Source: Hyalangium minutum
GTDB lineage: Bacteria; Myxococcota; Myxococcia; Myxococcales; Myxococcaceae
Length of the DNA stretch: 64,000 nucleotides
Assembly (NCBI RefSeq): GCF_000737315.1
Contig: NZ_JMCB01000003.1
Location: 217,394-281,393, forward strand
Reading direction: 5' to 3'
The notes below the pieces were generated by a model, which had not been told where the DNA came from, did no database searches, and worked only from the letters and a program-made list of their open reading frames with translations. Both the position numbers and the translations under genes were made by a program. This document shows, in pieces, positions 24,001 to 46,302 of the stretch (positions within the stretch are counted from its first letter, which is position 1; each line of letters opens with the position of its first letter).

Positions 24001-27000
24001 GGCGGTCCAGGGCCCGTGGGCGGTGCTGGTGCTGCCAGGGAGAGGGCTGTCGATCGTCAACATCGCGGATCCGGCGCAGCCCCGGGTGCGCGGCACGCTC
24101 GCGGGCACCTTCACCAAGGCCCTGGCAGGGGATGGGCTCTATGTGCAGGGGAACTCCCTTTTCGAACTCGATCTGGAGGTGCCCTCCACTCCCGTGCTGA
24201 GGAACATGGCGGTATCGGCAACGGCGGTGGACGGCACGGCCGACGGGGTCGTCTTCAACTCCTACTCCTACCTCATGGTCCGCGCGCGGCTGACCAGCGG
24301 CCTCAGTGGCTACCTGTCGCTCCTGTGGCCCGTGGGAGTGCCTCAGACGGCTCGCTGGAACGATGGGAAGCTGCTGGTCGGGACGGATCGCTCTCTCGCC
24401 GTGCTCGTCCGCAGTGGGGACAGCCTCGGCGTGGCCCAGGAGGTACCGCTGCCCGCGGGGGTTCGCGCCATGGCCGTGGCGGATGGCCGGGTCTGGCTCG
24501 CCTGCACGGACGGCAAGCTGAGATGGGTGGACGTCCGCAACCCCACGGCTGCCCAGGTCATCGCCCAGGAGGCGCTCCCGGCCCGTGCGCTCGAGGTCTC
24601 CGGAGGGTTGATGCTCGCCACGACGGCGCAGGGGATCTTCGTGCGCCGGCTTCCGAACCTGGGCGCGGCGGGCAGTGCTCTGAGTACCCCGGTGGGAGGT
24701 CTGACCCTGGATGACGCGCCTCGGGCGGTGACGTCGTTCCGGCGGGGCGTATTGGTGGCGGCAGGGCTCGCCGGCGTGCAGCGGATCGTCCTGGACGATC
24801 CTTCCCACCCCAGCCGCGTCTCCCAGTCCGTGGCGGGGTTGGCCCTGAAGCAAGTCGAGCGCACGGGCGAGCAGGTCTTCACCCTGAATGGCACGACGCT
24901 CTCGATCCACGTGGAGCAGTGGGATGGAAGCCTGGTGAGGGATGGCGGTGCCTCGGATCGGCTGGCGGCGCTCGGCAGCGTGGAGCGCTTCGCCGTCTCG
25001 CCGAGGAGGCTGTGGGCGGTGTCGGGAGGCACGGTGTCCTCGATGGGGCTGCCCTCGGTGGATCAGAAGGTGTCCCTGCTGCTGGGCTCCGCCACGCTGG
25101 ACGTGGCGGGAGACGAGACGCGTGCCGTGGTGGCCCTGGGCCGCGCGGGCGCGGCGGTGGTGCTGGTAGATGGCGCGGGGACGCTGAGGCTGGGCGCGAT
25201 GATTCCGGAGGTCCACACGGACGCGGTGGCGGTGGACGGCGACCTCGCGCTGCTGGGAGGCCCCTCGGGCTTGGCGGTGGTGGATCTCAGCGCTGCGAGC
25301 GGGCCCGTGCGCCGGGCCTCGCTGCCCACGGCGGGAGCGGTGCGCCGTGTGAGGCTGGAGGGGCGGCTGGCCCTGGTGAGCGAGGGCTCGGCGGGAGTCG
25401 AGCTGTGGAATGTCTCCCAGCCCGCCGCGCCGGTGCTCCTGGGCAAGCTGTCCACGCCGCGCGCCGAGGACGCGGTGGTGGCCGCGGGGCACATCGTCGT
25501 CGCGGACAGTGTGGCGGGCGTAAAGGTCTTCTCCCTCCCCGCGGCTGGGGTGAACCCGGTGGTTCGGGTGGTGCCGGACGCGTCCAGCGTGGAGGCGGGG
25601 TCCTGGCTGGAGGTCTCGGCGCGGGTGTCGGGCGTGCAGGTGGATACGGCCGAGCTGCTCGTGGAGGGGCAGGTGCTCAGCCGGATGGACGAGCGGGCGG
25701 CGGTGGGCCGCTACCTCGTGCCAAAGCAAGCGGTGGTCGGCCGAGAGCTGGCGGTGCAGGTCCGGGCGCGCACCGCCTCCGGAGCCGAGACACTGTCGGC
25801 TCCGGTCTTCGTGAGGGTGTCAGCGCCCACGAACCTGCCGGAGATCGTCCTCTACCCGAACTCGCCCAACTCCGGCTGGTCGTACTACTCCGCGAGCAGC
25901 ATCTCCGTGTCCGCGGTCTACGGGGGGGCCCTGGCCCCCGTCTCGGCGCGGGTCCGCTGGGCGGGACAGGACCTGGGAGCGCTGACGGTCATGGACACCT
26001 CCATCCATGGGGAGCTGCGCATGCCGGTGGTGGGAGCGGACACGACGGGGACGCTGGAGTTCGTGCTCGTCGATGCGGCGGGGCGGATCAAGACGGCCTC
26101 CGTCCCGTCCATCAGGGTGCTGGCTCCCCAGGATCCGCTCCCCCAATCCGTCTACGGGCTGCCCTCCCGCCTGTACTCGGCGCCCTATGACAACGCCTTC
26201 ACGGCTCAGGCCTACTGCTACACTTGGTGCAACGTGCGCGTGGAGCGCAATGGCGTCACCATCGCGAGCACCCTGAGTACCTCCCCGTACACCGGGTGGC
26301 GAAGCCTGCCAGTCTCGCTGGTGCTTCCGGGAGAGACCACTGGAACGCAGCAGACGCTGACGATCGTGGCCGAGGACTCGGCAGGCCGTCAGGTCCGGCA
26401 GGAGCAGCGCTACACCGTGCTCCGGGATGATCTGGTCCCGTCGGTGTCCCTCTACGCGCCGTACTCCGCTTCCGAGGGCGCGACTGTCTCCGTCTCCGCC
26501 TACGCCTCGTTCCCACCGGGGCATCAGATCCGGTCGCTGCGGTTGTTGGCCAATGGGGTCGAGATCGCCTCCGTGGTGGGCCCCACGCTATCGGGCGTGC
26601 CCTATACGTTCCCCAGTGTCAGCGTCACCTCGACCGTCCGCTTCGAGGCGATTGCCACCGATCACCTGGGGCGCGAGGGACGCGCGGAGCAACTCGCCCA
26701 GGTTCTTCCAGACGCGCCGCCCAGCGCATCTATGTATGCGTCCCCAACGCCTGTGCAGGGCTACCCGATCTACGCGTGCATCAATGCCGCGGATGACGTG
26801 AGGCTCACGGCCGTGACCTTCAAGGCGGGAGAGGAGACGTTGTGGAGCTGCACGAGCGGCTGCTCGGCCTACTTCTCCACGTCCTTCTCCAAGTGCGTCC
26901 AGAGCGCGTCTCGCTACACAGGGAGCGAGATCGTCCTGAGCGCGGAGCTCACCGACAGCGTCGGCCATACTGTCACGGAGACGCGGCCCTACGCGGTGGC

Positions 27001-29857
27001 GCAGAACCAGCCGCCGACGGTGACGCTAACGTCCAAGAGCTATCTGGTGGCCGGACAGGGGGGGACCCCTGTGTACGCGAGTGCCTATGATGAGGCCCAC
27101 ATGCAGTCGCTCAAGGTGCGGGTGGGCGACACCCTGATCGCGCAGAGCACCTCCTCCTACTATGCCCAGAGTGGTCTCTCCTGGAGCGGTTCCTACACGC
27201 CCAGCTCTCCGGAGTCGTTCGTTCTCGAGGCGGTGGCGGAGGATGGGGCGGGCCTACAGACCGTCCTGCGCAAGCAGGTGCCTGTCTTGCCCGCGGGGTC
27301 GGGGCAGAGCTGTGAGAAGCCCGTCCCGATCGGCATGGACCTCACGCTGAGGCCGCCTCAGGTGCAGCTGCAGAGCACGTTCTACTCGCGGTGTGGGACC
27401 TTCTATACGGGCTCGTGGCACACCCTGCCGTTCGACGGGCCCGTCGAGGAGATCTCCTTGAGGGCCTATTCCGACTCTTGGTACTGGCCAACCCTCATCG
27501 TGAAGGACGGCTGTGACGCCTCGGCGGCGCAGTTCTGTCCATATTCCTCGTCGTCTTCCGATGTCTCCACGCGCGCCACCTCGCTCTCCTCCCAGGCGCG
27601 TGTCTTCCTCTCTCAGGTCACAGGGGACGTTTATGTCTCCTTCGCCCGGCTGGGCATGGGCGCCCGGTGCATCCCGGGCTCTACCTCCGTGGTCTGCTCC
27701 AACAGCGTCTGCCGTGAGCAGAGCAGTGGTGAGTACCGATGCGCTCCCGAGGCCTGCAGGGATGGCCTGGACAATGACGGCGATGGGCGCGTGGACTTCC
27801 CAGCGGAGCCGGGCTGCACGTCCGCGACGGACGACGACGAGACAGACCCCGTGCCGCTCCCCACCTGCGCCAACGGGGTGGACGAGGATGAGGATGGGGC
27901 CATGGACTGGCCGGCGGAGACGGACTGCCCCTCTGCCTCCAGCAACGGGGAGCACCCGACCTCCTGCCAGGTGACGCCGCTGACCCTGCTGGGCTCCCGC
28001 ATGCGGATCGACTTCTCTCAGGCCTCGAATCTGGACGATCTGGTGTGCAGCACCTCCGGCTCGGGGCCAGACCAGGTCGTGAGGGTGGAGGTGCCAGGCC
28101 AGGCCTCGCTCTCTGGATCGCTGATGGAGCCGTACGGGTACCCAAAGACGCTGGCGCTCCGAAAGAGCTGCACGGACGGAGGAGCGTTCCTCGCCTGTGC
28201 TCCGGCGGAGTGGCAATCGGTTTGGGATGATGGACGTTGGGTATCTCAGTCTGTGGCCATGACGAGCGCGGAGGTGGGGCCCGGCTCCTACCTGTTCGTG
28301 GCGGACTCCTCGCTGCCCACCGGGTACGGCGCACCCTTGTTCCAGGTCCAAGGGCAACTCGCGGCGGACCAGCCCTGTGATCCGGCGCAGCCCTGGTTCG
28401 CCTGTCAGCAGGGACAGCGCTGCCTACCCTCGGTGGACGGTTACCAGTGCCAGGACGCCGCATGCGCCAGCGCGCAGGACGAAGATAGCGATGGGTGGAG
28501 CGGCTATCCCCAGGATCCGGGCTGTACGTCGCCGGATGATCAGGACGAGTCGGACCCCGAGACTGCACCTGCCTGCTCCAACGGTGCGGACGACGACGGC
28601 GACGGGCGTACGGACTGGCCAGCCGATCCGGGCTGCAGCTCCGCCTCGGGGAACACCGAGTCGGGAGATGGCGAGCGGTGCGAGGCACCTGCGGAAGTGA
28701 CTGCATCCACCACGGTGGTGGACTTCTCGGAGGCGGCCTCGGACGAGACGCTGCTCTGTGATGCCCGGCCTGTCGGCGACAAGGTGTTGAGCGTCCGGAT
28801 GCCAGGGGCTGGCACCATGGTGCTCACTTCCAGCCCGGAGATCTCAGCGCTGGCGCTTCGTCCGGCCTGCGCGGAGGAGCATGCGGACGTGAGATGCCTC
28901 TCGACCTTGACGGCGCCCTTGTACACCAAGGTGCCGTTGGAGGCAGGGGCCTATTCGATCGTGCTCAAGGGGACAGGGACCGCGACGCTTCGAGTCTCGG
29001 GCTTCTTGAATCACGGCGCTGGCTGCGATCCCGCGATGCCTTGGTTCAAGTGCGTGGCTCCGGCGTCCTGTACCATGGGCCCCACGGGCGCCACCTGCGT
29101 CGCTCCGGTGTGCTCGAACGGGCTGGATGACGATGGCGATGGCAAAGTGGATTTCCCGTCGGATCCAGGGTGCAGCTCGATGTGGGATATGGATGAGTCG
29201 GATCCTCCGGCGACTCCCGCCTGCCGTGACGGTGTGGACAACGATGGAGACGGGCTCACGGACTGGCCCGTCGATCCAGGCTGCGAGATCCGGGACGATC
29301 TGGATGAGGCCGATCTCTCCACGCCTCCTCAATGCTCCAACGGTGTGGACGACGACGGTGACGGCCTGATCGACTACGGCTCCGATCCGGAGTGCTCCAG
29401 TGCGGGCTCGGACAGCGAGGGTCTCTTCCAGGGCGTGCTGGCACAGCACCTGTCCTCGCAGACGTCCGGCTATTTGCCCTTCACCGCCACCAGCCGGCTC
29501 CCGCTGATGACCTGCTTCGAGTCCAACCGGGAGCTCAAGAAGGTCTTCCAGTTCGTGGCGCCCAATACGGGGCGGTACATCATTCCTCCCAGCTGGCCCT
29601 CGGGCAGAGTGCGGTTCTCCGTCGACGTGGTCGGGCCCGACCGGGGACAGATCATCTGTGCCAACGACTCCGCGCAGCTGTCGCTAAGACAGGGGGACGA
29701 GATCATCGTCACTGTCGGAGGGGATGACACCTATGGTGGGAATGGCACCGGCGGGGTGATGCAGATCCACTTCATGTACTCTGAACCGCAGCAGATCGTC
29801 TCCCCATGGCTCCCACCCCCTGAGCTCGATTGGCAGTGGACGGGCGTCATCCCATGA
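2..29857 (+). CDS. Giant modular surface/adhesin-like protein, 5'-truncated by the window edge (more than 9,938 aa in window). It has tandem bacterial Ig-like domains, seven beta-propeller(LVIVD-like)+Ig+2xIPT/TIG supermodules, and a Cys/Asp-rich Ca-binding-like C-terminus.
   Basis: A single uninterrupted frame runs from position 2 to TGA at 29855-29857 and stays open upstream of the first in-frame GTG at 41. Repeated ~100-aa units have the pattern D.PP.V.L.P...DDVAV..VEF.VDG...PY...W, which is Ig/Big-like. Fourteen IPT/TIG-like motifs (G.GF.PGA.V.FGG.PA) occur in seven pairs. LVIVD-like repeats are present (LRVLDVRDP..., LAVVDLSRPAQP...). The C-terminus has CxNGxDDDGDGxxDxPxDPGC repeats. All antisense ORFs there are compositionally junk. 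Confidence 0.85.
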   Translation: MPGALLLEGLPHTVSLTSGDARSGTLSPQDFQLVRYYADGALLGTVRTPRVEMRNLEEDPTEPPEYVAVPLWELSYVPRAGTAGTVVALYAEAVDARGATARGATILVRIARDGPPLVTLRSPSGPRVQATAGRPVQLTGLVEDDTVTLGVELSLLVDGAQVSSTRLVGEGLGGTRAGSAPFSISWTPPVSSIGRLVRLQFMARDVGDHESRASLEASVVADAPPQISLQTPPPGSQVLAGTTQFLTASVVDDSAGPVEVTWRVNGVPVGASRSPPYRTSWSVPTSAAGSTLQLQATARDSTGNEAQASGELFVVSDTTRPSISLVVPRPLAEVPETQDLVVSVAGQDDATVKKVEVLLEGEVLATDDDPGPNGTQLGSFLTHTLVRSAQLMGRQQIRLGARAYDASGNVGSAPEVLVKVLPDAPPTVRFVLPAANTRATIGTPLELIAEADDDVAVSSVEFFADGNSSCRATLPPYRCTITVTGPARTLHLRAVASDAGGRSSSAEVAVQVSEDREPPLVAFRSPSEGSFTFAGRNLSVEVAASDDVGVRDVRLELDGQTVGTQSGGVVDGLYRLFRWQVPIPAGAAGHTLAFKAVATDTSGLTRERLLEVRARRDEAPAVSLTSPAPNSFYKEGEDVRLVVTVADDEGVIGLVGLSGGRRQGTLAQSGPLLDVSRPQALTVRAPSIFRGEPPTVGAEARDTAGQSGVATVMLNVARDLEPPSALMISPLPPATGHLRVNEGGAFSLRVEVEDDVRVVRVAAVVDGQELPVVNGREPLGPQNERFEEVRVQDPVMPGQIIVSRRYLGTFAGTASLAQYSVGLHTLAARAYDAGGNATTTPALSFEILEVQDLAPPRVTLTLEGGPDERTCVAGAPMKLRVSATDDVSIREASVTFEGQPVTIRNPPERSPRNWQEEIPFQFPPLGTGGRRTVTFLARVTDGAQHTGVVSRTCELTPDGPPQILVVSPTARAALTEEGTEPVQVDVSDDVGVRRGLRVLSTSAVAVPGIGSFEVTATAAHEGLGVPSATLIPGDGPGFSVEALEGRLLISPPGEGQGTGTTAPGRLRLNVEPSPAGHGALAQVRFRYVVKPGHEGSTALQSFRSAFPDGVGSVTLSAPAFSADLSFPSQDIEMEEVDIQLSKASANAEELAVTRLGLRGWGTPQLQLRAEAAGERVAVQRWNTGVAPSRPGQVKRIDEAVWLPRGQAPRDSQLTVLAEDVAGLVGRVAIPIVARTDTDPPTASIVSPGNGASVVEDTVFEVQVSAQDNARLDQLELWVDGQSRQVMRVGPGPSGSPQAHRFSLSLPLPASGYPAALSVVARDGAGNATASDTAYVRVIPDVAPSVTFQSLTSAVESFTRTELDSGYVVMLQGVPATLGMLLEDDAGLASMRVQFGDQVVKEESFTGAPLTAGRQVTFTPPVGRDGAPVVLLVSLTDSAGHTRQTRLLIESRRPRPPALALAAPTPGATIAEGSIQLLFDAVAVDDTGVDHVQLFINGQPALILTRGEPIAWNLDPQSGAVVVADPALRQAVASLPPEDQDLQRLRHYRGQVKLPPGFVALVPGRTDAALQLRTIAADKEGHETVLDQPLRIEADVATPLVEVLRPVLGRNVVEGTSVLVEVSARDNVLVDRVEILAGPSASELRVVHTAGGFPPTNAVPGSPFDVYAPLVQYAFTVPTLAQLGSTVPVPYFVAARARDISGNWTAPADFVIQPIEIIQDQPPGVSILSPADGTPAVANSTITVSVMAEDDVAVGNVRLEVDGTPLPVTLHAPPFSFHVPVPDRAGELRLRAVAVDSGGHQVGSQVVILPLRDDLAPTVAVAQPRPEARLTEGRDFALVVAAQDDVAIRSVEVLVEGGLAGPLRLVASNLPYSFRVPLPPGSAGRTLRIVARARDSAGHESVAPEVTALAVADTSRPTVAWLRPAAGSQALEGSVVELEVDARDDVAVNSLELRLNDQPLAIMPTPPFRMTYHVPAQGGGQALVFSAIARDPSGNQTVETRRLEIAEDEPPSVSVIAPTRLVVGNPALLRAQASDDVAVTEIGFHVGSDPAALSEVARRYQLPYEFRYAATEADVGKVLTIRGRAMDLAGHEAWSVPVQALVVPDTPPTVAVRKPLAGEAIFEGQRLRLEVEATDVEGPIKQVAFFVDGRKVHVATTPAGIPGSPNLFATSYSPPVGSGNRLLRITAVAVDSANQETESAPVVVGTVRDTVPPETQLVDPMVWELVTEAEPVEWTAAALDESAVVGVRFLVDGQQVGPPSTVPRPGPSNRPLYYGTWLPPSGAAGQTRTLTAEATDPSQNVGRAEPVTVELGMRPEPAVELVVEPYARRQAGMAADGEGLVIHGALLKDVPLPPPNDTVKRDEGRLALARLDLNGLAPLGTVKVTGSPVSQTLLGRLALVAMGPVFDPVGKKTIPAQLQVVDLSNTAVPRLRGVVDLPSDDVHQVVARDRLAFVANGTSGVAVLELGNPDAPQRAFTRPTVGPARGVAVTDQWLLVAAGSGGLRVLDVRDPYLRELGFVALPGEANRVEVVGSRAYVGCSNAQAPLAVVDLSRPAQPRLMSLLSHAPRRPDLLASEVTDVAVSGGVALVTTAITDQDAEPVKGILSASTVKADGAASTFVRANLPGARDVLFSQGRPVALLGDSAMGAFTLPRLAVTDVSPVDGTGQVPPTAQVTVTFSRLLQGASVTEQTVLLRAQDAVLGPVVPATVTVNETRILVAPRAPLPTNTEIFLTVLPTVTGEGGVTLGERFVSRFRTSPVDGLPPQVADVQPPAGPVDGGTRVRVWGLHFAPGARVLFSGQEATQVQVAADGRSLDAVTPPNLEGAVVVTVVNPNGLEGSLLGGFLYLQILDVSMVVPATGSLAGGNLVELSGSGFQRGATVRFDGVPATDVRVLSPGRISLRTPPGHFGTVDVRVDNPDGRYVVKPDAFLYSNLVVSRVLGRHIPDPQYDGPIRPAEKLPQGVPRAVVMQGGLAWLLSDGTAALQAHSPEELLQDSIQAAVTLVDVSDPDNAAVRSGVSIAPPYQPRALAVRGTTAYVAADAAELPYVDVVGEGGPSLLVVDASVLQAPRMVTAVPFEGTARAVAVADDLALVAAGAGGLAVFSVADPLRPVLTGSIQSMRVRGEVRAVNVVDVAASGRYALVRAGTNAGTFTLVLDLATPGIEVVGEASDLGPMALQGRRGLTLGNGQIRTLSFSPPTWPRNLVGMSSLVGGTPVTVAVGPHVGAAGTEVSRPGNSGSGKLEVSLSADPSRPRAVDAVDLYPAARFGGVAVERDVAVISISALLTKKGEVVADPTLALGSDGLAVVRMPFLMGMRSQPADGDTEVPPSTPLRLEFNREVAGASPQTVRLIRQDGSVNGVVEPAEIQTLGRTVLLLPAQPLAPSTTYRVVADQLTDALTRAEMAGPFYLEFSTASSSAAMPVSISGLTPREGPAAGGTLVTVTGTGFEPGATVRFGGVPATQVTVSEDGTQLTARTAANTAGAATLEVTNPSGSVARRLGAFLFTQPLSVLAAAPGRGPASGGTRVILSGTGFSSTGTVQVRFGGVPALRTRVLGLNRLEVYTPRGLRGTVDIQVTNPDGSQATLEDGFIFDQPGGASVALSDRPVDVVVIGDSALVLQRGGLSVVDLSGLYLKGPLKDTPIPPDLVDGLVDVDNDRKDDRLVSFLPIPDALSLAYPSTWGHRLFVGTGGWDSKLQQWTAGEVLEVAIADLAHPAISARTAAVEGPVFGLDVKDERLLAATGQKGLSSFDRSYAPFLVGQLPMQGAAQSVAGSAGMAVVGVGQRDATSFAVSAGALRIVSTEASPSLRGALPLNIQRARWKGDVAVVAAGDAGLVLVSAANPDQPQVLASVLVGGFAWDVRLQGNLAYVAAGTAGVAVVDLTDLLHPRVLYHVTGARGGTAKLVEMTAGGRLVSMRDRGTQGWSVDFGRPSELAVVSASVAPDEVVPLSLPSVTVTLSAGLLHTSAPEAFSFTANGAPVPGTLEAGTPELPVSTLVFRPSEPLPSGAELRLALGTSLRSLLGDALIAPFEVRFFAAGGTGERPQLLQVVPRVGPSEGGTEIELLGTGFVPGTTVRIGAAPALVLSLSSTRMTVRVPPGEPGLADVVVVHPSGVTARRSGGYFYSAPLFASASIPRFLNPKGGSTVRVTGRGFLPTWSSPLGSTRVLIRGLPARSVSVESTTQLVAVAGPGSFGDADVELVAADGLQRASSPSPVGYGLPFSGKVVGASVRPVALAGNPALPLLPFAAAGASVEGNTFPQPYTGPMTGGGLVPESFRMVAYDVTRVGRPELAGASVVDPPDHDVDYLIGSLPYLAQRELPLPEVELMPDSFDVALRGTQLLVANGASGLAVIDASGTTLEQWPLLGRGGIGSVLGQEYATRLLATPTGAWVFSNPLEDNLLPEEIPCKSPTDEHYPAAGSGGQLQLFDTRSPSDPVLLGSIGSGSAQEPYGATVAGGRLLVAMGNHAGVIYCTETPFPPPPWASLTTGRRTRFLGLDPSDDYRSEDAPIIMMKTPHGALELYDSAGVGAQRLARRPYPYSLTDVVVVRDVAIASAAEFGLIFFDVRPDNPQAPQELLRLPFDQSLSNTPGHPERLRLIGDLLFVAASSGSVYVLDVSDPRHPEFLSGGNTEFAYDVLPVGDRLMLASRQELTELSMPFLLPLSTTPERDALVPPSLSQLEVRFNRPLAPATVNDISVQLIGPSGPVPLELSVVAEHATLTYAVRAQLPEEGLEPGATYEVRIASTVADQRGGGMIRPFRTAFRTGAAGSHAPRIDAVQPSAVSMAGGQQVVIQGSGLSGVASVRIGGATASFTAAGDTELHVTVPPSTRPGPADVRIEDAGGPWSLLPHGVLYLSPLASAHASLVPDHGPVEGGTEVKVSFSGASPVAPGTRVFIGDREGVNVDVVSLSTLRFTTPRPDGPGLVPVKLERPGEVSETVGYFSYDLPTGTTVDLPGFPPRETSEVVLSGDLLFAGVPTAGYEGLELFNIRVPEHPVRLGGLRTEGAVRGLDARGALALLATDAFGLVAVDVQDTARPFTVGRGATAGLATGIRLEGNVAHVSVTQMDGGAGYVQTFDVSQPSLPLLSTTPLTEDALALDHAPGRFYALTSNVRTGQPDGLRLTVYTRQGQRLGGVVVDATPRSYAELVRSRLTVRGGRAYVTLGSRLYVFDMSDETAPQVLQSTELGAPARGLTWAGGSLLVSTTGSSTLVTVPPTDLLVVGTSPVNGALASPLTSIRVDMSLPVREDTVTAGTFEVVQVGSAGPVPVPGHREVVFATRGSSLVFTPEDPLEPGAQIEVKVEGVLGFDTRPLAHPASFAFTVAGEDALQPWVERLEPASGLFTDFTATTVRGAGFRQGVTVRIAGQNATVVSVQEDQLGIVVPPSLTSAGPASVEVIDPSGLSAVRLGGFLYREPLRLALLSPDRAPQQGGVAVELRGTGFMPGLVVRFGGTGSFQVDVPSMERAVAVAPPHAQGLVDVEAVLGSQSAVKARSFLYGTGAVSRLPTPPVRDVRVEGTVAYVALGGETEIVGLDAEGHLITLEQRRKTDSGGLMVADLSEPTVAREIRRVNVSAQGGVRRMARAGNTLYLAAGSAGVVAVDVSQPANASETLRLSVQGEAVDVVTAGSLIFVADGSGVRVFRTGETEQPMLVAQRALPGGASALALYGGLLLVSNASATDARLYVLDARRGDLAPLAQEAHLPLSAPARHIAVEGTRAFVSLGRAGQVAIVELADPTAPAPAGTLVLKDELHQGWTSAEQTLVAGDVVWVAGGGGKVQRFAALVGQQPQWLETASVLGDAKALARSGRYLMAGTLLLDVNGRPVEMPLADTRDAAGTLTGGLVSVALDHLELRGTVPVAGAVVQVGVVPEVLLSALPDMATAGAVRLEGTDGVEVRVARQGRADTEGGRLALIPQSPLAVGTDYVLRVGGTLADLAGRPLGTDVGVRFRTGPIASPEQPVITAMSPVTGLEAGGDTAVLTGEGFMPGCQVWVGDTLASGVTVSSDGGRITLIVPPGPAGAAAVRVRNPNGLEALQLGLYRYLVAPELTQVSPAQAPFNSRQRVVLTGKGFAATTQVTFGGRPALHPVMDSQGRISVEVPDDVTGVVEVAVATPMPGGALVARRPDGFTYTLKPLGGVGGNTEALAVAGRVLLAARAGRLVAFDLTRPGDLPEVANVPGVTSAGGLVVSGDEAWLAGQGEVVRYALEGCGAGLPVSCPLQVVERIPLVASGVASVAAGQGSAYVTVAGGSDVVLLGRVDGATRVVAQVNVGPGVVRGVAMAGPVLAVLVQGSQSSRLELRDVADGSLTLVGEVPGLYWTVNRLAAEGTRVAVASGAGVRLYETAEPAVPVELGRFEGQGSAYTVALSGPWALASGDFGLAWLDTTQGLKRRTSGSTYGWAGNVAVGAGVAVAASAYELRAFELPYPTVTGQEPSPGGALPREAAVSVTLADRLPPSVVQGTAMELVGPAGAISGTRTVQGSAVLFRPSAVLTPGERVQARVTLGATPYVGGTVLGPWTWSILPSAEAPSLRVDALVPDHGDVSGGYPVVLAGAGFDAQTQVWFGTRAATVVPPVSTDAIHVLAPASPVPGPVRVRVSPGVAGTPVDVPGGFVYLAPLAISRVTPPRVDLGGGAVTVEGTGFNRSLTARLGGLVAPVSDFTPTSFKLSVPAGPSGWLALEVAQAGTPPVTLAQAVLRADGVAPTVTAWEPLDTVGTGQVPLNSIFTVRFNEPIDPATATHVRLVRQGGTVPESGTHTVAPDGLSVTFTPAAALPSTTAFTLSAAGVADLFGNAIANTAAARKDFRSRDVVPPNVYVRLESSTEPLAPGTLLAAEVSWSFRVVASDDSGQVSLRQLWVDGAAVSVDWDGKATYRWPAIMSSRPSTLKVRAEDSAGNGTESEVTVQVVEDMPPTVAITQPSTPVVQVEQGVSLTVALAASDNHGVSAVELRLDGVPIKRASSLTGTNATLSHVLYLPTQGTYQLTALAMDDRGQLTSSESVSVQVLPDTTPPQLAWVLPMAGTKLIGGGRYPLQVSATDLNGVAEVSFRIDGQLVATRTAPPWSMDWDAPAVTSAGTRLLEARARDAQGNEAGASQTVTVAPPSTSRPTIVLDGFSTSYGYPEGTAVTVRARVTSEIPLQSVRLSLGAETVTLTQPPWQLTFVAPRVPPPSQLVRLRGTAVDLLGRESFPVEYDVTVQDDGRQPVLALDMNPQGPSLLGGSTLQVGGLDGGVLTGTVVRVSEVLQPAETDGGYTLPFEPEAAPVRVSARMDAWDGGMVTLERQGTLTAFANGATVSVAAADEPVLDLATSGPWEWVARDQSGGHTRLELRDAATQALTAERSLDGTAVAVAFERGRAVVALRTGGRGRVDMMSVPALETVGSFSVRRIPRALETTSFGLAIGTDEGLELWSSGGMLASRLPLGDVLGVSAEGDRLAVLTNSTLYEVDASVPHAPALVASVPVAGATGVVALADARRCVVGATARCFRVEGTALTLQGEARLPDTAIAADGPGPWLLAGTASGLSVVDARGAPSMAGYYPALAGRVAAGDGRIVAAAPGRSSLLKLRRSVGAPTVHLELPPSAAPGARVPVVASVEGLSDPRDGYTAELRVRGTAVQVLKGRLPQSVDLPRDGTAAQVALRVVDLAGHEALAQGTVALVDDGAGPALAALQARAEVPSGAFFSLAAVPADPARVASVEYSVDSTVLGRADAPALAWRLRAPTVSTDTAFTVSAVALDAQGRRGAPVQASVWVRAGTGAALPTVSLARVGTGSIQEGTEVRVRATLTPSVPVAEVRFKMDGEEQQRLMLPPYEAVLRMPVGTGSRGVTVEAVAVDDQGRESAAALLPLTVVDDLTPPVVALEVDPSGEVLTAGSRVRATAIASDGGALESWSVRALLANVELASGGGRLDFTVPASTPAGTLVEIVATARDVAGNVATSRVTKTVLAPVLPDGGVVVAGDFVGADRLTLRGDFVYATTPRGLAVGRVRWGETPTIEPVSFLATDVAPSSLAVQGPWAVLVLPGRGLSIVNIADPAQPRVRGTLAGTFTKALAGDGLYVQGNSLFELDLEVPSTPVLRNMAVSATAVDGTADGVVFNSYSYLMVRARLTSGLSGYLSLLWPVGVPQTARWNDGKLLVGTDRSLAVLVRSGDSLGVAQEVPLPAGVRAMAVADGRVWLACTDGKLRWVDVRNPTAAQVIAQEALPARALEVSGGLMLATTAQGIFVRRLPNLGAAGSALSTPVGGLTLDDAPRAVTSFRRGVLVAAGLAGVQRIVLDDPSHPSRVSQSVAGLALKQVERTGEQVFTLNGTTLSIHVEQWDGSLVRDGGASDRLAALGSVERFAVSPRRLWAVSGGTVSSMGLPSVDQKVSLLLGSATLDVAGDETRAVVALGRAGAAVVLVDGAGTLRLGAMIPEVHTDAVAVDGDLALLGGPSGLAVVDLSAASGPVRRASLPTAGAVRRVRLEGRLALVSEGSAGVELWNVSQPAAPVLLGKLSTPRAEDAVVAAGHIVVADSVAGVKVFSLPAAGVNPVVRVVPDASSVEAGSWLEVSARVSGVQVDTAELLVEGQVLSRMDERAAVGRYLVPKQAVVGRELAVQVRARTASGAETLSAPVFVRVSAPTNLPEIVLYPNSPNSGWSYYSASSISVSAVYGGALAPVSARVRWAGQDLGALTVMDTSIHGELRMPVVGADTTGTLEFVLVDAAGRIKTASVPSIRVLAPQDPLPQSVYGLPSRLYSAPYDNAFTAQAYCYTWCNVRVERNGVTIASTLSTSPYTGWRSLPVSLVLPGETTGTQQTLTIVAEDSAGRQVRQEQRYTVLRDDLVPSVSLYAPYSASEGATVSVSAYASFPPGHQIRSLRLLANGVEIASVVGPTLSGVPYTFPSVSVTSTVRFEAIATDHLGREGRAEQLAQVLPDAPPSASMYASPTPVQGYPIYACINAADDVRLTAVTFKAGEETLWSCTSGCSAYFSTSFSKCVQSASRYTGSEIVLSAELTDSVGHTVTETRPYAVAQNQPPTVTLTSKSYLVAGQGGTPVYASAYDEAHMQSLKVRVGDTLIAQSTSSYYAQSGLSWSGSYTPSSPESFVLEAVAEDGAGLQTVLRKQVPVLPAGSGQSCEKPVPIGMDLTLRPPQVQLQSTFYSRCGTFYTGSWHTLPFDGPVEEISLRAYSDSWYWPTLIVKDGCDASAAQFCPYSSSSSDVSTRATSLSSQARVFLSQVTGDVYVSFARLGMGARCIPGSTSVVCSNSVCREQSSGEYRCAPEACRDGLDNDGDGRVDFPAEPGCTSATDDDETDPVPLPTCANGVDEDEDGAMDWPAETDCPSASSNGEHPTSCQVTPLTLLGSRMRIDFSQASNLDDLVCSTSGSGPDQVVRVEVPGQASLSGSLMEPYGYPKTLALRKSCTDGGAFLACAPAEWQSVWDDGRWVSQSVAMTSAEVGPGSYLFVADSSLPTGYGAPLFQVQGQLAADQPCDPAQPWFACQQGQRCLPSVDGYQCQDAACASAQDEDSDGWSGYPQDPGCTSPDDQDESDPETAPACSNGADDDGDGRTDWPADPGCSSASGNTESGDGERCEAPAEVTASTTVVDFSEAASDETLLCDARPVGDKVLSVRMPGAGTMVLTSSPEISALALRPACAEEHADVRCLSTLTAPLYTKVPLEAGAYSIVLKGTGTATLRVSGFLNHGAGCDPAMPWFKCVAPASCTMGPTGATCVAPVCSNGLDDDGDGKVDFPSDPGCSSMWDMDESDPPATPACRDGVDNDGDGLTDWPVDPGCEIRDDLDEADLSTPPQCSNGVDDDGDGLIDYGSDPECSSAGSDSEGLFQGVLAQHLSSQTSGYLPFTATSRLPLMTCFESNRELKKVFQFVAPNTGRYIIPPSWPSGRVRFSVDVVGPDRGQIICANDSAQLSLRQGDEIIVTVGGDDTYGGNGTGGVMQIHFMYSEPQQIVSPWLPPPELDWQWTGVIP

Positions 29858-30723
29858 GGCCCTCAAGCGGAATAGGCAGCTGGCTCGTGTTGGCCCTCGC
29901 GGTGCTGTCCGGGTGCGATGACTCGCGAACGGTGGCGAAGGTGGGGCGCACGGGCCTGACGGTGGAGGACGTGACGCAGCTGCGCGCCGCGCAGAGCCCG
30001 AGCGTCCGCGCCGCGCCGGAGCAGACGCTGGAGGTGCTGGTGGATCGCGCCCTGCTGGCCGAGGAGGCCCGGCGCCAGAAACTGCACGAGCAGCCCACGG
30101 TGAAGGCCCAGCTCGCGGCCGCCGAGCGGGAGCTCCTGGCGCATGCGGTGCTGGAGCGGGCGGTGGCTCCCAGCGTGACGGACGAGGCGCTGCGCGCGCG
30201 CTACGAGGCCGCGCGCTCCCGGCTGGAGCGCCGCGAGGTGCACGTGGCCCAGATCTTCGCGCGGATGCCCGAGGGCTCTGATGAGAAGACTCGGCGCCAG
30301 GCGCAGGTGCGCATCAACCAAGCCTATGCCCGGCTCGCGGGCGGAGAGCCTTTCGAGACCGTGGCGCGCGAGCTGTCCGAGGACTTGGTGAGCGCGCCCC
30401 AAGGAGGAGAGCTCGGCGTGGTTCGGGAGGGAGGAGTGGATCCAGCGTTCTTCGCCCAGGCCGTGGCGCTGGCCGCAGGCGCTTGGTCCAAGCCGTTCAT
30501 CACGCCCTTCGGCTGGCACGTGGTGAAGGCGCTTGAGGCGTCGAAGACGGTGGTGCCCTCCTTTGATGAGGCGAGAGGTGTGCTGGAGTCCGAGGCGCGC
30601 CAGGAGGCCCAGGCGAAGCTGATGGAGCGGCTGCGTCAGGAGATCTCGGTCCGTCGCTACCCGGAGCGGCTCAAGCTGGCAGAGGAGAAGAGCAAGCCCC
30701 AGGGCGAGGGGGAGGCGAGATGA
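29854..30723 (+). CDS. Peptidyl-prolyl cis-trans isomerase, parvulin (PpiC) type. It is a PrsA/SurA-like foldase lipoprotein.
   Basis: The ATG at 29854 overlaps the TGA of the giant gene (ATGA). The N-terminus MRPSSGIGSWLVLALAVLSGCDD is a signal peptide with an LSGC lipobox. The C-terminal parvulin signature is PFITPFGWHVVKALE. A SurA-like N-terminal chaperone region rich in A/E/R helices is present. Confidence 0.85.
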   Translation: MRPSSGIGSWLVLALAVLSGCDDSRTVAKVGRTGLTVEDVTQLRAAQSPSVRAAPEQTLEVLVDRALLAEEARRQKLHEQPTVKAQLAAAERELLAHAVLERAVAPSVTDEALRARYEAARSRLERREVHVAQIFARMPEGSDEKTRRQAQVRINQAYARLAGGEPFETVARELSEDLVSAPQGGELGVVREGGVDPAFFAQAVALAAGAWSKPFITPFGWHVVKALEASKTVVPSFDEARGVLESEARQEAQAKLMERLRQEISVRRYPERLKLAEEKSKPQGEGEAR

Positions 30724-33700
30724 TCCGCCGCGCTCCGCGATGGCTGTGGCTCGTGCTGGGGCTGGTGACACTGGCCACGGCGTGCGACCGGCGCTCCAGC
30801 GAGGAGCCCGCGTCCGCCGCGCCGCCCGCGCAGGCTGCTCAACAGGCACAGGCGCTGTCCGGAAGCACGTGCGACAGCGTGGCTCCCACCGGCATGGCGC
30901 CGGGGTGGAAGGTGGCGCCGATCCAGGCTGCGGGCCAGAACGTCGCGAGCACGATCTTCCCGGCGTCCGTCGGTGAGCGGGCGATCCTGATCCTGCAGGA
31001 GTCGGCGGAGGCGCTGAATCAGGAGTTCAAGACGGAGGCCTCCCTCAACGGTGTGGACTGGGTGGCCATCTCCCGGCAGAGGCCGCTGGCGGCGCGGGTG
31101 GTGCAGCTGAGTGCCTCGAACCGGCTGGAGCTGGAGACGAACGGAGGCGTGGCACGGACGTCCGTGGCGGCGCTGTCGCCGCTGCCGTGCGCGGCGGTGG
31201 AGGCACGCGTGACGCACGCGGGAGGCTCGGCCGCCACCGTGGAGACGCGCACCTTCACATGGCCCATGGGAGCAGGCCCGGCCCTGCTGGTGGTGGAGTC
31301 GGGCAGTGCGTCGCAGGTGACGGGGCGGGTGGTGCTGGGCAGCCTGACGGTGCAGGTGCCGGCCGCAGGCCAGCTCCCCGTGGTGGAGGTGGTGTCGCCG
31401 CAGGCGAGCAACACGCTGCGAGTCGAGGTGGGAGGCAGCGCGGGCGCGTGGGTCCGGGCAGTGGTGGTGGAGCCGGACATGTTGCCGCCCATCGTGAGCA
31501 TGGGGCAGCCCGCGGAGGGCGCGCAGCTGAACGCCTCGCCGGTGGAGGTCCAGGGCACCGCGGGAGCCGGGGCGGTGGCCGTGAAGGTGGGGGCGGTGGA
31601 CGCGGTGCTGTCGCAAGGCCAGTACACGGCGCAGGTGCCGCTGGTGGAGGGGCCCAACGCGCTGGTGGCCGAGGTGAGAGACCAGTGCGGCAACGTGGCG
31701 CGAGTGTGCCGGCCGGTGGTGCTGACGACGGCGCCGCCCACCGTTGTTATCGAGGGAGTTACTGACGGCCAGGTCTCGCGCGAGCCACTGCACCCCACGT
31801 GGACGGTGACGAGCAGCGGCCCGGTCACGGTGGAGGCGACGCTGGATGGCGCGCCCTTCGTCGGCGGCACGGCTGTAACGGCCGAGGGCTCGCACGAGCT
31901 GCGGGTCATGGTGCGGGACGCGGCGGGCCGGGAGGCGCAGGCGCAGGTGGGCTTCGCGATCGACACCACACCGCCGCGACTCACGCTGACAGGAGTGGAA
32001 GAGGGGGAGCGGCGCAATACTCCGGCGGTGCTCGGCTTCACGGTGGAGGAGGAGCACCCGGGCTCGGTGGAGGCCACCCTGGATGGGGCTCCCATGGCCT
32101 CGGGGGACACGGTCTCGGCGGAGGGCGCGCATGTGTGGACGGTGGCGGCCACGGACGCGGCGGGCAACCGGTCCGAGGTGCAGCGCCACTTCGTGGTGGA
32201 TGTGACGGCTCCCACGCTGGAGGTGCTCTCACCCGCGCCGGGCAGCTTCACCCAGGCGGGCTCCGTCGAGGTGGTGGTGGCGGCGGCGGATGACGGGCCG
32301 GTGGCGGGCGTGTGGCTGGGGAACGCGGAGCTGACGCTCGGCACGGACGGGAAGTACCGGAGCCTGGTGGTGTTGGAGGAGGGCAGCAACCTGCTGGTGC
32401 TGGTGGCTCGGGATGCGGCGGGCAACAGCGCGCAGAGCTCGCTGGCCGTGACGCGGGACTCCACGCCGCCCCAGCTCACCCTCACCACCCCGGCCGAGGG
32501 CGCGAAGGTGGCGGGGGACTCGGTGCAGGTGGAGGGACAGGCGCAGGACACCACGCCGCTCACGGTGCGCGTGGCGGGGATGACCGCGGCGGTCGCGGCG
32601 GATGGTCACTTCCAGCTCTCGGTGGCCGTGGCGCAGGGCCCTGTCTCCCTGGAGGTGGTGGCCACGGATGCGGCGGGGAACACCGCGCGTCTGGTGCGCG
32701 GCATCCGCGTCAACACCACGCCCCCGAGGTTGGATCTGACGGCACCGGCCTCGGGCACGGTCACCGAGGAGTCCTCCATCGAGGTGTCCGGCTTCGCGAG
32801 GGCGGCGGATCGCACGGACACGGTGCGGGTAGAGGTGGCGGGAACCGAGCACGGTGTGAGGGCGGATGGCAGCTTCTCGGTGCAGGTGCCGCTGGAGGTG
32901 GGCCTGAACACCGTGTCCGTCACGGCGGTGGATGGCTATGGCCTGCGCACCCCGCGCACCGTGCGGGTGGAGCGCCAGGGGCCTCAGGGGCCCGGTCCTG
33001 GAGATGGAGGCTCGGGAGACGGTTCGGGAGGCGGCACGGACGGAGGCTCGGGGGAAGACACCCCGGATGCAGGCAGCGGAGCGCCGGATGCGGGCTCGCC
33101 CGGTCCCGTGCCGGATGGCGGCATCCCGAGCGAGCCTCCGGTGCTGGTGCTGGCCTCGCCCCAGGAGAACAGCCTCTGGGGTGTGGAGCGGGTGTCGGTG
33201 CTGGGCCGTGTGGAGGGCGGAGACCTGCCGCTGCAGGTGACGGTGGATGGACTGCCAGCCGCGGTGACGGGGCGCCAGTTCTCCGCATCGGTGGCGCTGC
33301 CTGAAGGCTCCTCGATGCTGCACGTGCGCGCCGTGGACGCGCTGGGCCGGATCGCCGAGGTGCGGCGGCAGGTGAGGGTGGATCAGACACCGCCCTTCTT
33401 GGAAGTGACGCGGCCGGAGCAGCCGTCGACGACCGTGAGCGAATCCCCATACCTGGTGGAGGGCCTCGCGGGAGACGCGTACCTCGCGGGCGTCACGGTG
33501 AACGGGGCGCCGGTGATGGTGCTGGCCGGGCACTTCTCGTCCTCGGTGGCCCTGGTCGCGGGAGACAACACCGTGGAGGTGGAGGCGGTGGATCTCGCGG
33601 GTAACCGCTCGCGCGCCGTCCGGACCTTGCGGGTGGAAGCGCTGCCGCCTCAGCTGACCGTGCTGGAGCCGGTCGATGGCTCGGAGGCCACCGAGCCGGT

Positions 33701-44780: not shown

Positions 44781-46247
44781 CTATTGCGCCTGCGGATTCT
44801 GAGTCGTGGGCGGGCGCGCTCGTTCCCAAGCAGGGTCGTAGCACTCCTCCTGCCACTGGTAGGTATCGTCGCTGCATGGCGGTCTCTTGTCGGCCACGCG
44901 CACCCAGCAGCCGCCATGAATGATTTTCTCCCAGTCTCGCTTGCACGGGGGGCGGCGCTGGCCCGGGAGCGGTTGCTTGGGCATGTCCAGGGAGATGGAT
45001 CTGGCCTCAGAGGGAATCGATTGAACTTCCATCCGAGTGGTGAGCGCATCGTCTCCCAATCCGCGGGTACCGGCATCTGGCTCCATGCCCGCATCCAGCG
45101 CTTCAGCACGCGCCGTCTCAGACGGCTTTGCGCTCCACTCGGGAGCCATCCAGCAGGGCCCCACCACCGCCAGAGACATCGTGAGCAGCGCGAGGAGATT
45201 CCTCCAAGGGACGGGCCGAACTTGCTGCCTCGCCTGGAGAGTTCCTGCTTTGTGCTCAGTAGCTTTGGCTGGGGCCGTCTTCGCATCGACGGGCCTCGCG
45301 GGCCCGGCTTGAGTCTGTACCGCAGGCTTCACTGAAGCCCAGAGAGGAACATCCGCTGCGGAACCTAGATGCTCCGCCGAGGTTTCCGCTGCTTGTGCCA
45401 ACTCACTTGCCGTCCCGCGAGCCTCAGGCTCCGCCGCGAGCAGCCGCTCCACCAGCGCCGAGAGCTCAGGCACCACTCGGGGGTTGAGTTCATGCGTGCA
45501 TTGGCGTCGCGCAACTCCACCCTGGATTTGTTTCTTGAGGTCTTCAGGCTCCGTGCCAGGAGGGGGATAGATCCGAGTCAATAACCGGTACAGCGTCACG
45601 CCCAGCGCATAGAGATCGTCCGCCGGGGTGGCGTGGTAGCGCGCTCCCGGCGTGCTCCAGTGTTGCCACTCGAAGCGTAGCGCCTCGGGGCTGCGGTACT
45701 CAGGCGTGTTGGGAGGCAGCACCCGATGGGTGAGTGGGGGAGCGCCCTTCCACGTGCCCGAACCAAAATCCGTGAGCACCGCCCGGCCCTCGGGCTCCAC
45801 AAGAATGTTGTCGCCCTTCAGGTCGCGGTGCAGGCATTCCCCGCGGTGCAACACCTCCAACCCCCATGCCAGCTGGGCCACCACCCGGAGCACTTCGCGG
45901 CTGGTGGGAGTGTGCATCCGCGCCCACTCGTACAGCCGCTGGCCCCGGATCCACTCCATCACCACATAGGGATGCCGGACTCCAGGCTCGGCCTCCCACC
46001 AACCTTGGTCGATGAGTCGAGGCACGGCCGGGTGGCGGGTGCGTCTGAGCAACTCCACCTCCCGTTCGAAGCGCGGGTCATGAGGGAACACCGCCATCTT
46101 CAGTGCCACGGGCGGGGAGCCCGGGTCGTCGGCGCGCCGGGCGCGGAACACGGCGCCGTAGCTGCCCCGGCCGGCATAGCCCTCGATGCGCCAGGGGCCG
46201 ACCAGATCTCCGATGTTCAGCGAGTCAGGTGTCCTCGTGCCCGTCAT
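44781..46247 (-). CDS. Membrane-anchored Ser/Thr protein kinase (Hanks type) with a C-terminal Cys-rich extracytoplasmic domain.
   Basis: Kinase motifs are present: GRGSYGAVF...ALK (gly-loop and VAIK-like), HRDLKGDNILV (catalytic loop), DFGSG, PEYRSPE (APE-like). A TM helix LLALLTMSLAVVGPCW is followed by a 5-Cys tail. Confidence 0.9.
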   Translation of the reverse strand: MTGTRTPDSLNIGDLVGPWRIEGYAGRGSYGAVFRARRADDPGSPPVALKMAVFPHDPRFEREVELLRRTRHPAVPRLIDQGWWEAEPGVRHPYVVMEWIRGQRLYEWARMHTPTSREVLRVVAQLAWGLEVLHRGECLHRDLKGDNILVEPEGRAVLTDFGSGTWKGAPPLTHRVLPPNTPEYRSPEALRFEWQHWSTPGARYHATPADDLYALGVTLYRLLTRIYPPPGTEPEDLKKQIQGGVARRQCTHELNPRVVPELSALVERLLAAEPEARGTASELAQAAETSAEHLGSAADVPLWASVKPAVQTQAGPARPVDAKTAPAKATEHKAGTLQARQQVRPVPWRNLLALLTMSLAVVGPCWMAPEWSAKPSETARAEALDAGMEPDAGTRGLGDDALTTRMEVQSIPSEARSISLDMPKQPLPGQRRPPCKRDWEKIIHGGCWVRVADKRPPCSDDTYQWQEECYDPAWERARPPTTQNPQAQ

Positions 46248-46302
46248 GGCACCGGAGACTACCCAAGGGGTCGCTCGCCGTCATGCCGCTCTTTCAGGTA
46301 GG

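Follow-up and report, generated by a model that had tools for sequence, protein, structure and literature searches.

Cysteine-bracketed acidic repeats and predicted jelly-roll domains at the C-terminal end of a giant Hyalangium minutum protein: a putative Ca2+-stiffened tip encoded beside an RHS gene

The DNA analyzed here, referred to as the window, is a stretch of 64,000 nucleotides (nt) of Hyalangium minutum contig NZ_JMCB01000003.1 (positions 217,394 to 281,393 of the forward strand; positions given below are those of the window unless stated otherwise). The subject of this report is the C-terminal 852-residue region of a giant protein encoded in its left part. The corresponding open reading frame (ORF) lies in frame 2, is open from base 2, ends with a stop codon at positions 29855 to 29857, and extends beyond the left edge of the window. 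At least 9,951 amino acids (aa) of the protein are visible, with the N-terminus lying outside the window. In Pfam searches, the body of the protein matched Big_7 (E = 3e-105) and TIG (E = 1e-71), and also Big_5 and LVIVD. The C-terminal region stands apart from this body by its composition: Cys makes up 4.7% of the last 852 residues versus 0.21% upstream. The 40 Cys residues of the region are distributed such that every module contains an even number, and the calculated pI of the region is 4.05. The modules are short acidic repeats (R1 to R7) and the domains between and around them (D0 to D3), which are directly followed by genes for a peptidyl-prolyl cis-trans isomerase (PPIase) and an RHS protein.

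A regular expression search identified exactly seven C-x19-C units between nt 27755 and 29434, which are arranged as two pairs and one triplet (2+2+3) and follow the pattern C-x-[ND]-G-x-D-[DN]-D-G-D-G-x-x-D-[FWY]-P-x-D-P-G-C. R1 reads CRDGLDNDGDGRVDFPAEPGC and R2 reads CANGVDEDEDGAMDWPAETDC; R3 (CASAQDEDSDGWSGYPQDPGC) is a degenerate copy that had not been spelled out in the first-pass annotation, an earlier model-generated reading of this DNA. That annotation had described about seven Cys-bracketed poly-Asp repeats, and both the number and the consensus it gave proved correct. Within each cluster, the repeats are spaced by 37 aa (111 nt). No further match to the C-x19-C pattern was present in any of the six frames of the window, and the pattern did not turn up in 2,000 shuffled versions of the C-terminal 852 aa. 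The copies share no more than 61 to 72% DNA identity, indicating that they are old duplicates kept by selection on the protein; a recent DNA duplication was rejected for this reason.

A homology search returned 1,352 proteins at E ≤ 0.001, of which the best 120 were used to derive a consensus. These 120 proteins contain 1,399 repeat copies with a dominant period of 37 aa and the consensus C-[AS]-[ND]-G-[LIV]-D-[DN]-D-G-D-G-x-[ITV]-D-[YF]-P-x-D-P-G-C. Conservation among the copies exceeds 90% at ten positions. It amounts to 99% for D6, 97% for D8, 95% for D10, 88% for G11, 96% for D14, 98% for P16, 93% for D18, 71% for P19, and 92% for G20. An independent alignment of 32 modules (the window's own and 31 homologs), each composed of two repeats, a domain, a 4-Cys knot, and two further repeats (R-R-D-knot-R-R), shows no variation at the bracketing Cys residues. 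Each repeat is probably closed by a disulfide between C1 and C21.

The repeats belong to a catalogued family. The NCBIfam model NF033662 ("acidic double-disulfide repeat," acid_disulf_rpt) matched the region with 101.5 bits (E = 1.4e-29) at a curated cut-off of 41, in six stretches covering model positions 6 to 29 of 32, and it shares with the window repeats the consensus and the 37-aa period also seen in the 1,399 homologous copies. The window units have one Cys pair each and Pro-rich linkers without the motif CPxGPxCPxC, whereas many NF033662-type homologs carry an extra Cys pair in the linker in the form of this motif, which presumably explains the term "double-disulfide" in the family name. 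The entry consists of a curated hidden Markov model (HMM) and a name; our literature search found no paper on it and no experimental work. Of the HMMs that the first-pass annotation had named for comparison, i.e., thrombospondin (TSP) type 3, MopE, and the Myxococcus cysteine-rich repeat, none matched at threshold, and the model that did match was not among them. For the C-terminal region, Pfam TSP_3 and TSP3_bac gave no match at E ≤ 1, and when 110 individual repeats were searched, TSP3_bac matched one of them below threshold (E = 0.61). The MopE motif PF11617 matched two of the 110 repeats, with a best score of 18.8 bits (E = 0.002) that did not reach the cut-off of 27 bits, and the Pfam EF-hand models matched 11 of them, likewise below threshold (best E = 0.016). 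Dockerin (PF00404) had no Pfam match at E ≤ 10, and the Myxococcus cysteine-rich repeat (TIGR02232/DUF4215) was absent from the NCBIfam and Pfam results at E ≤ 1. HemolysinCabind did not match, and GGxGxD nonapeptide repeats are absent from the region. With the whole region and each module as queries, Pfam at E ≤ 10 listed only subthreshold matches to EGF, GBD_T9SS_assoc, MopE, EF-hand, and DUF7501. A literature search on Cu-binding_MopE found only a teneurin phylogeny paper.

AlphaFold2 (AF2) was used to predict the structure of two parts of the region. The first model, covering aa 9246 to 9560 (R1-R2-D1-knot-R3-R4) and computed from the 32-module alignment, reached a mean predicted local distance difference test (pLDDT) of 86.8 and a predicted template modeling score (pTM) of 0.70; its repeats contain neither helices nor strands. 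In the second model (R5-R7-D3), R5 and R6 displayed pLDDT values of approximately 88 to 95 and R7 of 72 to 85, again without helices. Structure prediction had been suggested at first pass as a means to tell repeat structure from disorder, and R1 to R6 were predicted to be ordered, with pLDDT values of 85 to 97. An ordered but irregular conformation of this kind is what would be expected of loops wrapped around a metal. Since no flanking helices are predicted, a dockerin- or EF-hand-like fold is unlikely, and this candidate was rejected on the basis of the AF2 models.

A structural reference for the repeats is the cysteine-rich (C-rich) domain of teneurins, the core of which was aligned by Tucker et al. 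in 2012 (e.g., CGDNLDNDGDGLTDCVDPDCC; Table 1 of PMC3278476). The C-rich domain of teneurin-4 (Ten4; human residues 834 to 871, 38 aa; PDB 7PLP) was solved at 1.5 Å by Meijer et al. in 2022 and binds three Ca2+ ions via E835, D840, D843, N844, D845, D847, D851, D854, D856, and three backbone carbonyls (PMC9058538). Two of the sites resemble those of thrombospondin type 3 repeats (TSP-1 T3) and one resembles that of LDL-receptor A modules (PMC9058538). Over its initial 14 residues (CRDGVDNDGDGLTD), R6 is identical to the Ten4 core in 7PLP at 10 of 14 positions. The ligands D840, D843, N844, D845, D847, and D851 correspond to repeat positions 3, 6, 7, 8, 10, and 14, and it is at these positions that the bacterial repeat is conserved best. 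The likeness to DxDxDG calcium loops noted at first pass is borne out by this register between the D-x-D-x-D-G-x-x-D core and the teneurin Ca2+ ligands; the motif is equivalent to a structurally proven Ca2+ site. In hhalign, the repeat profile aligned with the teneurin C-rich cores over 14 columns with a probability of 95.5%, a P value of 1.5e-8, and a score of 31.2. Alignments to 300 column-shuffled teneurin alignments scored 8.7 ± 2.3 (maximum, 18.5), and none of the 300 reached 31.2, showing that the match is to an ordered motif and not to Asp-richness. In a one-sided profile search, the teneurin cores obtained only 12 to 16 bits (E values of 0.1 to 0.7). The teneurin core motif ExxCx(D/N)xxDx(D/E)xDxxxD is satisfied by the repeats except for the leading Glu, which is not conserved.

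When a profile of 110 repeat sequences was searched against the PDB sequences, the best match was Ca2+ loop 2 of calmodulin (VDADGDGTIDFPE; E = 0.0065), to which the repeat loop vDdDgDGlvDyP is nearly identical, whereas phmmer with an 847-aa region found only a calmodulin-like protein (E = 1.3) among the PDB sequences. EF-hand and dockerin loops are framed by an entering and an exiting helix, which the repeats lack. Thrombospondin type 3 repeats share with the window repeats the Asp-rich D-x-D-x-D-G-x-x-D loops, which in the window repeats would likewise be wrapped around Ca2+ and stapled by disulfides, and the absence of regular secondary structure (predicted for the window repeats), but differ in the placement of Cys residues and in repeat length. 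The initial description of the repeats as TSP type 3- or dockerin-like can thus be kept for the TSP type 3-like Ca2+ core, while Pfam membership and the dockerin part have to be dropped, the latter for want of helices. Taken together with the teneurin correspondence, the repeats very probably bind Ca2+ in a TSP type 3/teneurin-like manner, as judged from sequence comparison.

The likeness to the teneurin C-rich domain comprises the 14-residue core C-x-D-x-x-D-N-D-G-D-G-x-x-D, the length (38 aa versus a period of 37 aa), disulfide bonding (probable in the repeat), the absence of regular secondary structure (predicted for the repeat), and the association with a YD/RHS shell protein. There are also real differences. 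The teneurin domain contains six Cys residues (paired 1-3, 2-5, and 4-6) with a conotoxin-like tail CCxxxxCxxxxxC, whereas the repeat has two Cys residues and no such tail; at the site of teneurin C852, the repeat has F, Y, or W at position 15, followed by Pro. In teneurins, the C-rich domain occurs once and belongs to the polypeptide that carries the YD shell, in contrast to the seven repeats of the window protein, which are encoded by the gene neighboring that for the shell. Homology between the repeat and the teneurin C-rich domain is possible on this evidence, and so is convergence.

The repeat clusters alternate with the domains D0 to D3. At first pass, three similar beta-sandwich-like domains had been recognized, each thought to be preceded by a Cys-rich stretch. 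The beta-sandwich stands, but there are four domains, of which D0, D1, and D2 are paralogs and D3 is an orphan at the sequence level, and the Cys-rich element is a 4-Cys knot that comes after the jelly roll instead of before it. D1 and D2 are 26% identical over 158 aa (blastp E = 6e-14). Their eight Cys residues are spaced 27/41/9/60/9/6/9 and 26/37/9/43/9/6/9, respectively, and those of D0 are spaced 27/40/8/44/9/5/10. The alignment of D0 with a D1-family profile is weak (hhalign P = 0.0028) but places the Cys residues in register; based on the shared eight-Cys spacing and this alignment, we regard D0 as the third true paralog. The knot following the jelly roll has a weak Pfam match to EGF (E = 0.034).

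The AF2 model of D1 is a beta-sandwich. Foldseek searches of the PDB with this model retrieved the claudin-binding C-CPE (8u5d; E = 5e-4), the collagen-binding domain (CBD) of ColG (1nqj; E = 1e-3), and a collagenase PPC domain (5sv5; TMt 0.69). The models of both D1 and D3 superpose on the ColG CBD (1nqj/1nqd), PPC (5sv5), and C-CPE (8u5d) structures, and the predicted models show the jelly-roll fold of the ColG CBD and PPC. These three references are extracellular binding modules with the same predicted fold as D1 and D3, although the clostridial domains lack the two putative internal disulfides and the 4-Cys knot of the window copies. The PPC model PF04151 matched seven of the 32 aligned modules (best E = 2.5e-7) and GBD_T9SS_assoc matched six, the window's own copy being in neither set. 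D0 to D3 of the window gave no PF04151 match even at E ≤ 10, so that their sequence link to this family would be a transitive one via the aligned modules. D3 contains two Cys residues and shares no detectable sequence similarity with D0 to D2, although it has the same predicted fold. A HMMER scan of 1.84 billion representative proteins with D3 and the tail found only three or four orthologs, a word-indexed search found no homolog of D3, and a scan of contigs found no relative of it.

The protein ends with a Pro/Trp-rich tail, the last 25 residues of which (…LPPPELDWQWTGVIP) are predicted to be disordered (AF2 pLDDT below 50). The tail pattern LPPPE(P/L)xWxWxG is common to the window protein and the homologs P0121 and P0123, and a divergent form is present in P0122. 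As a peptide, the tail could be recognized by the neighboring PPIase, by a partner, or in a sorting step.

Two proteins, P0009 (an Archangium fragment) and P0121, are orthologs of window residues approximately 8670 to 9951, and they are the only proteins with a D0 ortholog. P0121 resembles the window protein in having D0, D1, D2, and D3 and seven repeats, whereas P0009 has five repeats and three domains, i.e., one PPC module and two repeats fewer. Most other homologs are 1,100 to 1,480 aa in length and come from Myxococcota metagenome bins (Kofleriaceae, Bradymonadia, and Myxococcales). The stand-alone homologs start with a lipoprotein signal and consist only of R-R-PPC-knot units, a unit that is widespread in Myxococcota proteins predicted to be lipoproteins. 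In some homologs, the repeats are fused to secreted subtilases or glycoside hydrolases, one homolog is a Patescibacteria protein, and long tandem arrays hold 13 to 18 repeat copies. The stand-alone lipoproteins and the repeats behind secreted enzymes point to a generic extracellular building block. Three further settings were recorded for P0069, P0078, and P0079: a tandem array of 17 nearly identical copies that follows a glycoside-hydrolase-like domain and ends in a hydrophobic C-terminal anchor, a subtilase, and a protein from Patescibacteria that has a membrane region at its C-terminus. They suggest a promiscuous extracellular module that extends well beyond the Myxococcota.

The giant-protein gene is the first of three genes that overlap end to start (Table 1).

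Table 1. Modules of the giant protein and the two genes downstream of it, with positions in the window
Feature	Position (nt)	Strand	Basis
Upstream body (aa 1-9099 visible)	2..27298	+	Ig-like domain arrays with LVIVD stretches
D0, divergent PPC-like module with 4-Cys knot (aa 9100-9251; 8 Cys)	27299..27754	+	Cys spacing, hhalign
R1 (27755-27865) and R2 (27866-27964)	27755..27964	+	Regular expression; NF033662; AF2 pLDDT 85-97
D1, PPC/collagen-binding-domain-like jelly roll (predicted), then EGF-like 4-Cys knot (aa 9322-9487)	27965..28462	+	AF2, Foldseek
R3 (degenerate; 28463-28573) and R4 (28574-28672)	28463..28672	+	Regular expression; AF2 pLDDT ~95
D2, D1 paralog with knot (aa 9558-9703)	28673..29110	+	blastp; 8-Cys framework
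R5, R6, and R7 (starts 29111, 29222, and 29333)	29111..29434	+	Regular expression; AF2
D3, terminal jelly roll (predicted), sequence orphan (aa 9812-9926; 2 Cys)	29435..29779	+	Predicted fold
Pro/Trp-rich C-terminal tail (…PWLPPPELDWQWTGVIP) and stop codon	29780..29857	+	Pattern kept in orthologs
Parvulin (PpiC-type) PPIase lipoprotein gene	29854..30723	+	Pfam Rotamase E = 1e-18; lipobox LSGC
RHS/YD lipoprotein toxin (4,682 aa)	30720..44768	+	RHS_repeat E = 5e-52; lipobox LATAC

The giant gene and the PPIase gene overlap at the stop codon of the former and the ATG of the latter (ccATGAgg, 29854 to 29857), and the PPIase and RHS genes overlap in the same manner (ATGA, 30720 to 30723). Owing to the ATGA overlaps at both junctions, the three genes are likely to be translationally coupled. 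The order of giant-protein C-terminus, PPIase, and RHS protein recurs in three other contigs: L001 (10001 to 25328), a metagenome contig of the European Nucleotide Archive (ENA), L002 (1 to 4266), a metagenome-assembled genome (MAG) of the Myxococcaceae, and L003 (1 to 6683), a Cystobacter MAG. The PPIase is 70 to 79% identical in L002 and L003, and the N-terminus of the RHS protein is 54 to 77% identical in L001, L002, and L003. In L001, the giant genes are called as several separate genes, which probably reflects frameshifts in the assembly.

The RHS protein has Pfam matches to seven Glucodextran_B domains, Big domains, CarboxypepD_reg, DUF6531, RHS_repeat, and PT-HINT. Its N-terminal half (30720 to 37700) starts with a lipoprotein signal, followed by Ig-like arrays (Glucodextran_B ×7, Big_13), a transthyretin (TTR)-like CarboxypepD_reg domain, and then DUF6531 and the RHS shell. 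This layout parallels the BIG-TTR-…-YD order of bacterial teneurin-like proteins; an NHL propeller was not found in this half by Pfam. At the C-terminus (43300 to 44768), the last approximately 150 aa after PT-HINT show a zinc-deaminase-like signature, HAE…(N)PTCKLC, and a MafB19-like deaminase match below the cut-off (E = 1.7e-4, 22 bits). The domain is probably a nucleic-acid deaminase toxin, judging from these motifs. No obvious immunity gene follows the RHS gene, the next ORF (44781 to 46247, minus strand) coding for a Ser/Thr kinase. In the body of the giant protein, LVIVD matches (beta-propeller-type) and a weak CopC-like match occur among the Ig-like arrays (10000 to 14000 and approximately 13700).

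These data lead us to a reading that we consider somewhat probable, namely, that the region is a Ca2+-stiffened, disulfide-stapled ligand-binding tip. The C-terminal 852 aa would constitute the distal, functional end of a giant extracellular fiber of Ig-like domains. Within it, the four PPC/collagen-binding-domain-like jelly rolls, three of them capped by a 4-Cys knot, would be the likely ligand-binding units, a role assigned on the model of collagen-binding domains, C-CPE, and related carbohydrate-binding folds. Between the jelly rolls would lie 21-residue loops, in pairs or as a triplet, each closed by one disulfide, followed by an acidic "DxDExD" linker, and presenting the carboxylate array C-x-[DN]-x-x-D-[DN]-D-x-D-G-x-x-D. 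At millimolar Ca2+ in the oxidizing exterior, the loop array may bind Ca2+ in the way of TSP type 3 repeats and the teneurin C-rich domain, and binding would convert a segment that otherwise lacks structure into a rigid spacer that resists proteases and keeps the binding domains apart and in fixed orientation. The cotranslated parvulin PPIase lipoprotein probably aids folding of the Pro-rich, disulfide-bonded modules or of the giant proteins as a whole, a role that fits the dense conserved X-Pro bonds (P16, P19, and the Pro-rich linkers) and the size of both neighbors.

Several points weigh against this reading. Not one Pfam Ca2+-binding family matches at threshold, and two of the eight acidic Ten4 ligands (E835 and D856) and four of the six teneurin Cys residues have no counterpart in the repeat. 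The confidence of the D3 model is only modest (pLDDT 50 to 83), and export of the protein is assumed, as its N-terminus lies outside the window.

Among the other explanations considered, a dockerin-like Ca2+-dependent plug is rather unlikely: repeat pairs would dock the fiber tip on the RHS toxin or the PPIase, and the fiber would present or deliver the toxin. The repeats are indeed paired, as duplicated dockerin segments are, and the synteny of the three genes, translationally coupled and conserved in three other contigs, is what supports the interaction with the RHS protein that had been suggested at first pass. The delivery machinery of bacterial teneurin-like YD toxins is stated to be unknown (PMC13018210), and in Ten4, the C-rich domain is listed among those that stabilize the compact dimer through their interactions (PMC9058538). 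However, no helices accompany the loops, dockerin is absent from the Pfam matches, and no cohesin-like partner was identified, while the arrays of 13 to 18 copies, the fusions to unrelated enzymes, and the stand-alone lipoproteins without a recorded RHS neighbor fit a generic spacer better. A Ca2+-triggered folding ratchet for export, by which the region, like the RTX blocks of type-1-secreted adhesins, would stay unfolded in the Ca2+-poor cytoplasm, fold outside, and pull the chain along, appears improbable to us. In RTX adhesins such as MpIBP and LapA, Ca2+-dependent binding domains are clustered at the end of a very long Ig-like extender. The layout of the window protein is alike in its C-terminal position on a giant Ig-repeat protein, and the Asp-rich composition, very low pI, and absence of secondary structure of its own would also agree with a ratchet. 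In contrast to RTX adhesins, the region is Cys-rich and lacks both the GGxGxD nonapeptides and a HemolysinCabind match. Its 40 Cys residues imply oxidative folding, which type-1 substrates do not typically undergo. Sec/lipoprotein signal peptides are present in stand-alone homologs, and the 34 kb downstream contain no genes for type-1 secretion (ABC transporter, membrane fusion protein [MFP], or TolC), the upstream side lying outside the window. An RTX-like block was rejected given that nonapeptides and transporters are missing.

If the repeats bound copper or a different transition metal, a function that has been proposed for the MopE motif, the region would be a metal-scavenging or metal-sensing surface, which we regard as highly improbable. 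The MopE motif match stays under its cut-off and concerns two of the 110 repeats, and the structurally solved relative binds Ca2+. Moreover, only carboxylates and Asn occur as conserved ligands, and neither His nor Met nor a free Cys is conserved; this ligand chemistry favors Ca2+ over copper, and the copper candidate was rejected on it. Finally, the Asp-rich composition and the absence of predicted regular secondary structure might be taken to indicate a low-complexity, acidic, disordered linker with fortuitous Cys residues. This explanation is effectively refuted by the strong conservation at ten positions of the repeat, the invariant Cys residues, the high pLDDT values, the retention of the protein pattern in spite of diverged DNA, and the lack of matches in shuffled sequences.

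The preferred reading, a Ca2+-stiffened binding tip, makes the region a member of a known but experimentally untouched kind, as both the repeat family and the PPC fold are catalogued, and its core is tied to a crystallographic three-Ca2+ site, which provides a cheaply testable hypothesis that would apply to an entire class of surface proteins in bacteria. The neighborhood of giant fiber, PPIase, and RHS protein is a candidate answer to the question of how surface-anchored YD/RHS toxins are positioned relative to target cells in social predatory bacteria. The repeat is also of relevance to the origin of the teneurin C-rich domain. Tucker et al. traced this domain to a diatom or algal donor and the YD part to a bacterium (PMC3278476). 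According to Raoelijaona et al. (2026), bacterial teneurin-like YD toxins are lipoproteins that are especially frequent in Myxococcota; these authors describe the delivery machinery as unknown and do not discuss a bacterial C-rich domain (PMC13018210). The cassette described here (EGF-like knot and C-rich-like repeats, PPIase, and YD-RHS lipoprotein with a TTR-like domain) can be compared with the teneurin order of EGF, C-rich, TTR, plug, and YD shell. It is conceivable, though we consider it unlikely, that the teneurin C-rich domain has its prokaryotic homolog, and possibly its source, in the NF033662 repeat, and that the cassette is the split counterpart of a teneurin ectodomain, with the Ca2+-loaded tip contacting or presenting the YD toxin. 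If this were true, the tip would supply the "missing delivery machinery" of bacterial YD toxins. The link is suggestive, as a C-rich-like motif that follows EGF-like knots occurs in abundance in the same phylum and is here coupled to a YD/RHS gene, the basis being a 14-residue motif and synteny. If none of these ideas holds, the region is one more modular adhesin tip, and in kind it is an ordinary one, with an intriguing but unproven teneurin/RHS link.

Some further observations concern the surroundings of the three genes. Beyond the RHS gene, the window contains a YhgA-like (Transposase_31) ORF (46186 to 47517) and a gene for an RNA 3′-phosphate cyclase (RtcA; 48839 to 49915), and further downstream housekeeping genes for an SppA S49 peptidase, an Mrp/ApbC-type ATPase, and a 3-hydroxyacyl-CoA dehydrogenase. 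The GC content of the window is approximately 0.72. It drops to 0.66 to 0.67 between positions 26000 and 30000, i.e., in the C-terminal repeat/PPC region, and a second time, to the same values, between 38000 and 46000, where the RHS-repeat and toxin part is encoded. These drops may reflect amino acid composition (Asp/Asn codons) or modules gained by recombination.

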